Shown one piece after another: positions 12,544 to 23,852 of a DNA stretch of 64,000 nucleotides. Made by a program: the position numbers and the translations under genes. The notes under the pieces are model-generated. The model saw only the letters and a program-made list of their open reading frames with translations. It ran no database searches and was not told where the DNA came from. The stretch lies in the NCBI GenBank assembly GCA_019058315.1, contig JAHPZH010000001.1, forward strand, positions 471,536 to 535,535, in the 5' to 3' direction. Position 1 is the stretch's first letter. Each line of letters opens with the position of its first letter. Source of the DNA: Candidatus Helarchaeota archaeon (lineage in GTDB: Archaea; Asgardarchaeota; Lokiarchaeia; Helarchaeales; RDOG01).

Positions 12544-12623
12544 GGGGTCGTAGTCCTAAGTGGTTATAGACACCGACGTTGACACGTTCGGAGATGCGGG
12601 TTCGATTCCTGCCGATCCCCCCA
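12544..12623 (+). tRNA. Atypical tRNA-Val(GAC)-like element (possible pseudo-tRNA or tRNA-like RNA)
   Basis: GGGGTCG/CGATCCC acceptor stem, GCGGG-TTCGATT-CCTGC T-arm and CCA end; but a 19-nt irregular anticodon arm and C73. Confidence 0.75.
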
Positions 12624-21786: not shown

Positions 21787-22050
21787 ATGACTCGATACGA
21801 AGCATTTTTATGCAATGACTGTGGTTGGGGCAGTAAGAAAGATAACTGCGTCAAATGTGGTAAATGGATAGGATCCTCTGGCGTCCCCGCTATATTGTGC
21901 GACGATTGTGGGTGGGGCTCTAAAAAAGACGACTGTGTGAAATGTGGAAAGTGGATGGGTTCAACCAAAATCCCAGCAATGCTATGCAATGATTGTGGAT
22001 GGGGCTCAAAAAAAGATAATTGTGCAAAATGTGGTAGATGGGCTCCCTAA
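21787..22050 (+). CDS. Three-repeat 12-Cys zinc protein, PHF5A/Rds3-like
   Basis: Three 29-aa repeats A.LC(N/D)DCGWGSKKD(N/D)C.KCG.W, each CxxC-x8-CxxC. Confidence 0.8.
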   Translation: MTRYEAFLCNDCGWGSKKDNCVKCGKWIGSSGVPAILCDDCGWGSKKDDCVKCGKWMGSTKIPAMLCNDCGWGSKKDNCAKCGRWAP

Positions 22051-22131: not shown

Positions 22132-22881
22132 ATGAAGCTTAATAAATTACAAATATCCATCATTGCTTGTGGTTGGTTTTATTCAGCATATTTTGCAATC
22201 TGGGCTTTTATTGTGTATTCCACAAGCAATCCCTATAATGCTTATGGATATGGGCTGGCAGGAACATTTATTGGTGGAATTACGAAGGCATTGACTTTCT
22301 TCTTCGTTAATGGATTAATAATTCTTGTTAGTTCTATTCTAATTATCCTTGATAATCGTCAAAGACAAGATGAAATAGATCGGGCTCTTCAAAAAACTGA
22401 TTATATACGGATAATTCTTTTAATAGTTGCATTCTTTTTTGCCCTTCCTTGGTTATTTGCGATTCATGGAATATTTATTTCAGACATCCCTATATTAAAT
22501 TTAATATTTTTAGGAAGGCAACCGGGAATTCTCGGCACAAACTTTTTTGATTATATTTATCCTTCCGTACACCTCGGATTGCATCATGGTACAGATGGTT
22601 ATTTACATATTTCTTATGCCATCCTTCTTTCAATCCTAATTTTCAAAATGAAAAATCCAATAATTCGTAATGTCTCAATTTTTGGAATGGGTTTTCTAGC
22701 ATCTTACGGTCTTATTGCATATTTGGAGGATATTTTTCATGAACAAATTCTAAAACGAGGTTTTCTTCCTCCTATTTGGCATTTAATAAAATTATTTTAT
22801 GATTATGGCATATTCTTTGGACTAATATTCGGATTAATAATTTTAATTTTTGGAGTGTATTATTTTCACGAAAAAGAATAA
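22132..22881 (+). CDS. Membrane protein with conserved-looking His motif (HLGLHHG.DG)
   Basis: Six to seven TM segments and a His cluster. Confidence 0.75.
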   Translation: MKLNKLQISIIACGWFYSAYFAIWAFIVYSTSNPYNAYGYGLAGTFIGGITKALTFFFVNGLIILVSSILIILDNRQRQDEIDRALQKTDYIRIILLIVAFFFALPWLFAIHGIFISDIPILNLIFLGRQPGILGTNFFDYIYPSVHLGLHHGTDGYLHISYAILLSILIFKMKNPIIRNVSIFGMGFLASYGLIAYLEDIFHEQILKRGFLPPIWHLIKLFYDYGIFFGLIFGLIILIFGVYYFHEKE

Positions 22882-22890
22882 GAGCTATTA

Positions 22891-23085
22891 TCATCTAGTA
22901 TCGAAAATAAATACAAGAATGGAGCAAATCCCAAACCCTAAAAATATAAGCCCCTCATTAAGAAAATAGCCAAAACTAGGTACAATTAATAAAAGAATGA
23001 GTAAGAATCCACCTAAACCAGTAAAAGAGATACCTAGGATTAGGAAAAAATATTTTTCTAAAGTCGATTTCCTTCTGACTGACAC
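22891..23085 (-). CDS. Small two-TM membrane protein
   Basis: Two hydrophobic helices. Confidence 0.5.
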   Translation of the reverse strand: MSVRRKSTLEKYFFLILGISFTGLGGFLLILLLIVPSFGYFLNEGLIFLGFGICSILVFIFDTR

Positions 23086-23121
23086 TATTTTCTACCATAA
23101 TATATTTTTGAATTATTTATC

Positions 23122-23199
23122 GAATTATTTAACGGGCACAAACCGCTGGTCAATTATTTCTTCAAAGATTTATAAAAATAATTTCATCCCAAATAATTC
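23122..23199 (-). promoter_or_regulatory. Eukaryote-like SECIS element in the 3' UTR of the DsbA-like selenoprotein gene
   Basis: GAAUUAUUU-GGG-AUGA-AAUUAUUUUU-[AUAAAUCUUUGA]-AGAAAUAAUU-GA-CC...-AAAUAAUUC. Confidence 0.8.
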
Positions 23200-23213
23200 T
23201 ATTATTCTTAAAT

Positions 23214-23852
23214 TTAGCTTGGTTTATTTTTAAGATAAACATTTTCGAATATTTGTTTAAAAGTTTCAATTGGTTGACAGCCTGCAAATAATGCTTTTTT
23301 TATATTACCTGCTATAAAGGCGGGAACTGCAGAAATTCCATAAGAAAAAGCCTCTTGTTTCGATTGTTCAACAATAGGAGTAAATAATCCCGTATTTAAT
23401 TCTTCCTCAAGTTCTTCGATATTTAAACCCGTTTCAGCAGCTACGTTTAAAATAACTTTTAGTTTTTCTATGTCTTTCATATCTAAGAAGTAGGCTTTAT
23501 ACATCAAATCCTGAAACATCTCATATTTTTCAGGTTGTAATCTAGCAAATTCAGCTGCTTCAAGTGCTAATCTTGATTTGGATAATGCATTTGGAAGCTT
23601 GATTGAGATATTATTAGTATTTGCAATTTTTTCAATTCGTTTCCAAAAAGATTTAATATAATCATTTACATCAATCGGCAAAAAGGACATTGCCAAATCT
23701 GCTTCAAGCCCCTTTGGATGAAGTTCATATGGTTTCCACGTAATTAACAATTTATATTCTCCTTCTGCATCAATCTTTTTAAGAATCTCCTTAGCTAAAT
23801 AACACCATGGTCAAATAAAATCAAACCAAGCAATAATATTAATTTCTTTCAA
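23214..23852 (-). CDS. DsbA/FrnE-family thiol oxidoreductase, selenoprotein (Sec14, UPWC)
   Basis: GGAGTGA SD, TTG start at 23852, MKEINIIAWFDFI-U(TGA 23811-23813)-PWCYLA in frame with the listed 178-aa ORF; WKPYELHP, GISAVPAF, GCQP. Confidence 0.88.

Follow-up and report, generated by a model that had tools for sequence, protein, structure and literature searches.

On its minus strand, the window (the whole 64,000-nucleotide stretch of DNA analyzed here) carries a gene that very probably encodes a cytoplasmic DsbA/FrnE-like thiol-disulfide oxidoreductase with the active site U14-P-W-C17, in which selenocysteine (Sec) is predicted to be inserted at an in-frame UGA by means of a kink-turn SECIS element in the 3' UTR. 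A preliminary description of this DNA had arrived at a 212-aa UxxC DsbA/FrnE-like selenoprotein with a eukaryote- or Loki-type SECIS in its 3' UTR, and the Sec machinery of the genome, the conserved UGA and the conserved hairpin all agree with this central proposal. The DsbA-like selenoprotein has already been published for this exact sequence, and the present analysis is a confirmation and not a discovery.

Reading frame, conservation of the UGA and protein family

The features of the gene are the following.

23863-23856, minus strand: Shine-Dalgarno-like GGAGTGAT, 3 nt upstream of the TTG start
23214..23852, minus strand: coding sequence of the DsbA/FrnE-like selenoprotein, 212 aa plus stop, translated with TGA = U
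23852-23850, minus strand: TTG start codon of the selenoprotein gene
23813-23811, minus strand: UGA codon 14, predicted to be read as Sec, first residue of U-P-W-C
23214..23750, minus strand: 178-aa ORF of the ORF list, from an internal TTG (23750), without the redox motif
23216-23214, minus strand: TAA stop codon of the selenoprotein gene

The frame 23852..23214 contains a single TGA, and its translation with TGA = U gives the N-terminus MKEINIIAWFDFI-U-PWCY, with FDFI-U-PWCY as the motif region. The ORF list holds only the 178-aa tail of the gene (23750..23214). The preliminary description had extended this tail through the TGA to a TTG start behind GGAGTGAT, giving 212 aa, and had remarked that the listed ORF lacks the CxxC and that the UGA stands at the first Cys of the family motif; all of its coordinates match the sequence, and both remarks were verified. 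Its expectation that standard annotation would truncate the gene is also borne out by the protein collection, in which only forms of 175-192 aa are stored. Nine close relatives were found there among 5.8 billion proteins, namely the window's own truncated ORF and eight proteins on contigs of other samples, all of them such fragments.

The eight orthologous contigs come from several studies, with protein identities of 63-91%, and in every one of them the frame runs upstream through a TGA at the identical codon (8/8, or 9/9 with the window gene), inside the common motif (F/Y)-D-(F/Y)-I-TGA-P-W-C-Y. The differences upstream of the TGA are mostly in third positions (ATT/ATC/ATA, AAT/AAC, TTT/TTC), and the 12 codons before it show 72 synonymous versus 54 non-synonymous pairwise differences. 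The preliminary description had named TGT or TGC at the UGA site in raw reads as one sign that its reading was wrong; the independent contigs keep TGA instead. Contigs of two runs of another study (X2 and X3) span the Sec codon as well, and among the differences listed for them, none falls at 23811-23813. In an alignment of 23 sequences, U14 is placed against the first Cys of the CP(W/F)C motif of 15 Cys homologues, so that the alternation of Cys and Sec looked for among homologues is present, with Cys at this position in these 15 and TGA in 9/9 orthologues.

The signals for initiation are conserved too. The sequence GGAGTGAT is found in 5/7 orthologous loci that are long enough, the other two having GACGTGAT (L043) and GGAGCG (L045), and a TTG, CTG or ATG stands at the same codon behind this Shine-Dalgarno site in all 7 loci that reach it. 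The start codon, at 23850-23852 in the window and at the same codon in loci such as L042, L046 and L047, alternates among the orthologues, being TTG in four cases, CTG in three and ATG in one. One of the CTG loci has a stop six codons upstream and no canonical start in between, which would require initiation at the CTG or at an internal ATG. With CTG in three orthologues, the exact start site is thus not certain in all of them.

The protein matches the Pfam family DSBA (PF01323) at 95.4 bits (cut-off, 25.6) over residues 6-201, a range that spans the UGA. The AlphaFold2 model, which was built from the alignment (pLDDT 94.4, pTM 0.90), predicts a thioredoxin fold with the DsbA helical insertion, composed of strands 2-10 and 33-41, helices within 49-170, strands 178-181 and 187-190, and a helix at 195-208. 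Strand 2-10 leads into the U-P-W-C turn, and helix alpha-1 (residues 15-29) comes directly after Sec14, so U14-P-W-C17 lies at the N-terminus of alpha-1 as the CxxC of the family does, with Sec replacing the first Cys. Across the 23 aligned sequences, P177 never varies and V176 hardly does; the two align with the G-V-P of FrnE and are predicted from this to form the cis-Pro loop facing the active site. A signal peptide or N-terminal extension, as expected of a classical secreted DsbA, is absent, as strand beta-1 begins at residue 2; since the protein begins directly with this strand, the model suggests that it is FrnE-like and probably cytoplasmic, and not a classical secreted DsbA.

Foldseek places FrnE, the SCO1869 DsbA and kappa GST at the top of its matches. 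By sequence (E 1.7e-10, residues 3-211) as well as by fold (TM 0.77-0.84), the best match is the FrnE of Deinococcus radiodurans (among other structures, PDB 5CNW and 5COH), which is a disulfide oxidoreductase/isomerase of the DsbA family and cytoplasmic. The two proteins have in common the D-x-x-C-P-W-C-Y motif (with U for the first Cys here), the G-(V)-P-x-F loop and the lack of a signal peptide, but they are only 21-22% identical, and the selenoprotein ends at residue 212, with the alignment stopping at FrnE residue 224 of 260, so that the C-terminal tail of FrnE is missing. This tail, which we take to carry a CxxxxC motif, holds the second cysteine pair by which FrnE proper can be recognized, and the selenoprotein has no such tail. 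It has a cysteine of its own near the C-terminus, Cys193 (G-C-Q; codon at window positions 23274-23276, minus strand), located in the loop before the last helix. This residue is found in 8/8 aligned full-length Sec-form sequences, whereas every aligned Cys-form homologue has V, F, Y, A or L there, a distribution which suggests that Cys193 could possibly be a third redox residue specific to the Sec clade.

Downstream of the selenoprotein gene, and convergent with it, the window contains genes for an 87-aa protein (21787-22050, plus strand) with three repeats of C-x-D-C-G-W-G-S-K-K-D-x-C-x-K-C-G and 12 Cys, and for a 249-aa multi-pass membrane protein (22132-22881, plus strand). The orthologues in L040, L041 and L043 are followed by genes of equal sizes and orientation, which means that the neighborhood is conserved.

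The SECIS element of the 3' UTR

The element and its parts are located as follows.

23122..23199, minus strand: SECIS element, in the 3' UTR, starting 14 nt after the stop codon
23199-23191 with 23130-23122, minus strand: helix I (outer helix, 9 bp), GAAUUAUUU with AAAUAAUUC
G23190-C23148 and G23189-C23149, minus strand: kink-turn stem
23188-23186, minus strand: 3-nt bulge (N-A-U)
23187-23184 and 23151-23150, minus strand: core, AUGA and GA
G23185.A23150 and A23184.G23151, minus strand: tandem G.A pairs
23183-23174 with 23161-23152, minus strand: helix II (10 bp)
23173-23162, minus strand: apical loop, 12 nt, with AAA
23147-23131, minus strand: side hairpin
23118-23110, minus strand: second copy of AAAUAAUUC, alternative 3' partner of the outer helix

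The hairpin had been recognized in the preliminary description with its helix I, AUGA/GA core, 10-bp helix II and AAA loop, every coordinate of which is correct. The GG/CC stem, the 3-nt bulge and the tandem G.A/A.G pairs add up to what we take to be the geometry of a kink-turn. As the 3' strand of helix I is duplicated, the outer helix has two possible registers: the minimum free energy (MFE) fold pairs it with the copy at 23118-23110 and the centroid fold with that at 23130-23122. The second copy (23110..23118) is not conserved in the orthologues; the outer helix itself is present in each of them, in a variable register. The side hairpin (CGG...CCG), which follows the GA-CC and precedes the 3' strand of the outer helix, reads AGG...CCU in two orthologues.

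All six orthologous contigs that reach the region have the element, in full in five of them (L040, L041, L042, L043 and L045) and in part, at the contig end, in L046, so both the UGA and the hairpin turned out to be conserved in relatives, as the preliminary description had required. The invariant columns include the GG before the core, the AUGA, the AAA of the loop and the GA-CC after helix II. The six full sequences (the window and five orthologues) have 93% of their cells paired and five pairs changed on both sides; with the partial seventh sequence, in an alignment to a covariance model built from the SECIS core of this family (R1), there are seven compensatory pairs, a number reached in 0/500 shuffles, and the paired share is 92-93% across both alignments. 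None of 500 shuffles reached the covariation score or the paired share, and 0-2 of 500 reached the count of compensatory pairs, while pairing dropped to 44-58% when the 3' partners were slid as a control. Helix II is 94-97% paired with four to five compensatory pairs, and the GG/CC stem becomes AG/CU in one orthologue, which is itself a compensatory change. The fold energy of the single sequence is not unusual compared to shuffles (z = -0.73). A loose descriptor of the K-turn hairpin finds 440 matches in 11.6 Mb (both strands of this AT-rich genome), so that the 150 nt behind a given stop codon would be expected to hold about 0.006 of them.

The covariance-model check that had been proposed did not bring support, as the Rfam SECIS families give no match at E <= 10 on 23000-23300 and none at the gathering thresholds over the window, these searches having only chance-level matches. 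Mariotti et al. (PMC4989117) reported that no Loki SECIS matched curated models of eukaryotic SECIS elements, and the Rfam result therefore does not separate the DsbA element from accepted lokiSECIS elements. R1, which is dominated by family-specific sequence, scores the window element at 74.7 bits and finds no other SECIS genome-wide among the 150 that were scored of about 12,000 first-look candidates, its next matches having E > 1 and not being near known selenoprotein genes. Because R1 finds only its own site, the kinship with the other SECIS elements of the genome rests on architecture and not on a scored match.

The element has several details in common with the lokiSECIS (PMC4989117): the upper stem is immediately flanked by AUGA on its 5' side and by GA on its 3' side, the apical loop begins with adenines and, in most orthologues, ends with A-G, and the stop codon lies only a few nucleotides upstream. 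The lokiSECIS of 2016 was fixed at 9 bp and 11 nt, whereas the stem here has 10 bp and the loop 12 nt, with up to 17 nt in orthologues; these values fit the limits of the type I eSECIS-like structures (PMC11227280), which are 7-15 bp for the upper stem and 8-20 nt for the loop. Unlike the lokiSECIS as the text of its descriptions presents it, the DsbA element has its GA separated from the 3' strand of the outer helix by a conserved GC-rich side hairpin.

Selenocysteine machinery and readings of the UGA

The genome (5.79 Mb in 12 contigs, about 30% G+C) contains the components that the preliminary description had listed as a check: tRNA-Sec, SepSecS, EFSec, a PSTK-like gene and SelD. The tRNA-Sec scores 63.5 bits (cut-off, 47), is identified by ARAGORN as tRNA-SeC with the anticodon UCA, and directly adjoins the genes for SepSecS (400 bits in the profile match) and for EFSec, a SelB-type factor (287 bits; cut-off, 242). 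SelD (235 bits) has its own in-frame TGA, in a G-U-S-C-K motif, and the PSTK-like gene has a score of 170 bits, below the strict cut-off of 290.5, with an E value of 1e-49. TGA closes 374 of 2,436 long open frames (15%), and no tRNA with a UCA anticodon was found in the genome besides tRNA-Sec, so the code is not globally changed. ARAGORN finds only 26 tRNA genes genome-wide, which suggests that many tRNAs are probably non-canonical or intron-bearing; in the window, Rfam gives a tRNA at 12544-12620 (plus strand, 35.2 bits), where ARAGORN finds none.

These data can be set against other readings of the UGA. It could be a nonsense mutation or a miscall (a sequencing or assembly error) in a former CPWC DsbA gene, and gene callers do stop at it; we give this practically no chance, since the identical codon occurs in eight independent contigs from several studies at 63-91% identity, purifying selection is visible upstream and downstream of it, the stop codon is followed by a conserved SECIS, and a search of the genome at E <= 1e-10 found no second, Cys copy of the gene. 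Very improbable as well is that translation ends at the UGA, with a 178-aa DsbA-fold protein without the redox motif as the product, and that the hairpin acts as a terminator or is some unrelated RNA. In favor of this, a possible start codon opens the 178-aa ORF, and the DsbA fold does occur in redox-inactive proteins, of which relatives of kappa-class GST and of HCCA isomerase are examples among the fold matches. Against it, strand beta-1 and helix alpha-1 of the thioredoxin fold would be missing from such a product according to the model, and conservation at the protein level, with synonymous changes, extends over the 13 codons before the TGA, which have a conserved Shine-Dalgarno site in front of them. 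The AUGA/GA core and the A-rich loop stay invariant while the stems covary, and the hairpin is without the U-run typical of an intrinsic terminator.

A code change or a near-cognate read-through, by which Trp, Cys or Gly and not Sec would be inserted, deserves mention because TGA was rendered as W by some pipelines in a related small gene family of these organisms, and because stop-codon recoding has been described in some Asgard lineages (PMC9723677). The 15% of long frames closed by TGA and the lack of any UCA-anticodon tRNA found other than tRNA-Sec speak against a standard amino acid; furthermore, one orthologue of the gene itself terminates in TGA, the UGA stands exactly at the position of the catalytic Cys, which is the classic Sec/Cys pair, and a complete Sec pathway and a SECIS are present. 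We hold this reading to be highly unlikely.

The analysis shows the reading frame, the conserved UGA, the fold, the Sec machinery and the conservation and covariation of the RNA. For the selenoprotein, the following course of events can be proposed, in which we infer the Sec insertion, the cytoplasmic location, the redox chemistry and the substrates. Translation would start at the TTG behind the strong Shine-Dalgarno site, and at codon 14 the archaeal/eukaryote-type EFSec would bring Sec-tRNA(Sec) to the UGA instead of termination taking place. This recoding would be directed by the kink-turn SECIS 14 nt after the stop codon, with its AUGA/GA tandem sheared pairs, 10-bp upper helix, A-rich loop, 3' side hairpin and outer closing helix. 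In the folded protein, Sec14 would sit at the N-terminus of helix alpha-1, opposite the putative cis-Pro loop V176-P177, act as the attacking active-site residue and cycle between the selenol/thiol state and a selenylsulfide with Cys17.

Published record, origin and other selenoprotein genes of the genome

Whether the family had been catalogued in Asgard archaea was left as a question in the preliminary description, and the answer is yes. Huang, Xiao and Zhang (ISME J 2024, PMC11227280) analyzed more than 400 Asgard genomes and reported DsbA-like selenoproteins as two sequences from Lokiarchaeia/Helarchaeales, whose only SECIS structures are eSECIS-like and resemble the ones of frhA, hdrA and frhD of the same organisms, and they concluded that these proteins evolved from Cys homologues; a 2026 review (PMC13188914) lists DsbA-like among the archaeal selenoprotein families as one found only in Asgard archaea. 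The entry "Lokiarchaeia_GCA_019058315_U" in the supplementary FASTA of PMC11227280 is identical to the window protein in 212/212 residues by a by-eye comparison; it writes X for the Sec and shares the first residue derived from the TTG. The second DsbA-like entry is a close relative. The gene is one of the two behind the argument of Huang et al. 2024 that Asgard archaea convert their own Cys proteins and acquire eukaryote-like SECIS elements. What our analysis adds to the two published sequences are eight more contigs with orthologues, support for the SECIS from covariation, the conserved Shine-Dalgarno and start site, the reading of the element as a kink-turn and three-way junction with a 3' side hairpin, and the Cys193 of the Sec clade. 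The text of PMC4989117 and of PMC11227280, figures aside, has no mention of the side hairpin and the kink-turn stem, and the searched text of the published descriptions has none of Cys193 as a feature of the Sec clade. Such genes are also systematically truncated in public protein collections, as 9/9 members are stored as fragments of 175-192 aa.

The closest Cys forms are 36-40% identical, have a CPFC motif and come from genomes of the same order, and none of the remaining proteins among the 5.8 billion exceeds about 35% identity. A pattern search of metagenome and genome contigs gave only distant Cys DsbA genes (20-38% identity), the patterns being too query-specific. In the tree of PMC11227280, the two Sec forms (100/100) have four Cys forms of Lokiarchaeia as their sister group (97.6/100), and all of these fall within a wider clade of Lokiarchaeal Cys proteins. 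The hedged suggestion of a bacteria-derived gene is not supported, given that the nearest Cys forms are Lokiarchaeal and that the published tree nests the Sec pair among them; a recent bacterial origin is not indicated, and the sequence searches agree with a local one. Form 1 of the bacterial DsbA-like selenoproteins (UxxC, PF01323; PMC13188914) belongs to the same Pfam family and has Sec at the same position, but the bacterial proteins have an in-frame SelB-type SECIS just after the UGA and there is none here, and the nearest relatives of the window protein are the Lokiarchaeal Cys forms and not the bacterial Sec forms. A bacterial SelB-type in-frame SECIS was considered for this gene and rejected, as no stable hairpin lies downstream of the UGA (z = +0.98).

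As a separate observation, the Cys-form gene is adjoined in two related genomes by a gene for a Cys-rich Fe-S protein of about 360 aa (L037:1457-2539, minus strand; L038:394-1491, plus strand), HdrD/CCG-domain-like by eye. The Sec-form genes have no such neighbor.

Other selenoprotein genes of the genome were found via their in-frame TGAs, and these code for SelD, three FlpD/VhuD proteins, a VhuU-like peptide and a Prx-like protein. The 3' UTR elements of those other than SelD are located as follows.

C11:675788-675870, plus strand: element of a non-SelD selenoprotein gene
C5:666156-666240, plus strand: element of a non-SelD selenoprotein gene
C11:387955-388034, minus strand (approximate): element of a non-SelD selenoprotein gene
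C5:1207635-1207720, plus strand: element of a non-SelD selenoprotein gene
C5:351820-351915, minus strand (approximate): element of a non-SelD selenoprotein gene

In the MFE folds, all five consist of an outer helix, an arm of 9-10 bp and a small side hairpin; the arm loop is A-rich in most of them, and four of the five have GCAA in the loop of the side hairpin. The core ahead of the arm is not always canonical: FlpD_a has AUGA and FlpD_b has UUGA, and Prx and FlpD_c are without a clear AUGA/GA pair. The SelD SECIS looks different from these five. By its architecture, the DsbA element belongs to the genome's own SECIS class. A further reading, which is tentative and which we consider somewhat unlikely, is that the SECIS elements here and in at least five other selenoprotein genes are not simple two-stem hairpins of the eukaryotic type but three-way junctions in which the small, mostly GC-rich side hairpin 3' of the GA is functional, for example as a docking site for an archaeal SECIS-binding factor, and, separately, that Cys193 serves as a third redox residue. 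To our knowledge, archaea lack SBP2. If functional, the side hairpin would bear on SECIS recognition in archaea, and we offer it as a lead and not as a result.

A looser descriptor of the three-way junction has 602 matches versus 329 in the reversed sequence, which is too permissive when used alone, and it is informative only after a filter for an upstream frame with an in-frame TGA. Three small ORFs, each with one in-frame TGA, were observed in the genome.

G000:C5:240976-241398, plus strand (= L064:176-598): 140-aa ORF, TGA motif A-I-U-G-T-G-G-S
G000:C3:786494-786865, plus strand (= L063:194-565): 123-aa ORF, TGA motif S-I-G-U-G-G
G000:C2:186051-186374, minus strand (= L062:251-574): 107-aa ORF, TGA motif F-S-U-C

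Each is followed, after 1-4 nt, by a three-part SECIS with an upper helix of 9-11 bp. None of these families is among the seven that Huang et al. 2024 (PMC11227280) give for the selenoproteins of Asgard archaea. The 140-aa protein has homologues in other metagenomes whose stored sequences show W at that position, and the one contig that was checked translates only with TGA = W. Two of the three small ORFs have weak matches to HesB/IscA (PF01521), with E values of 0.005 and 0.08.
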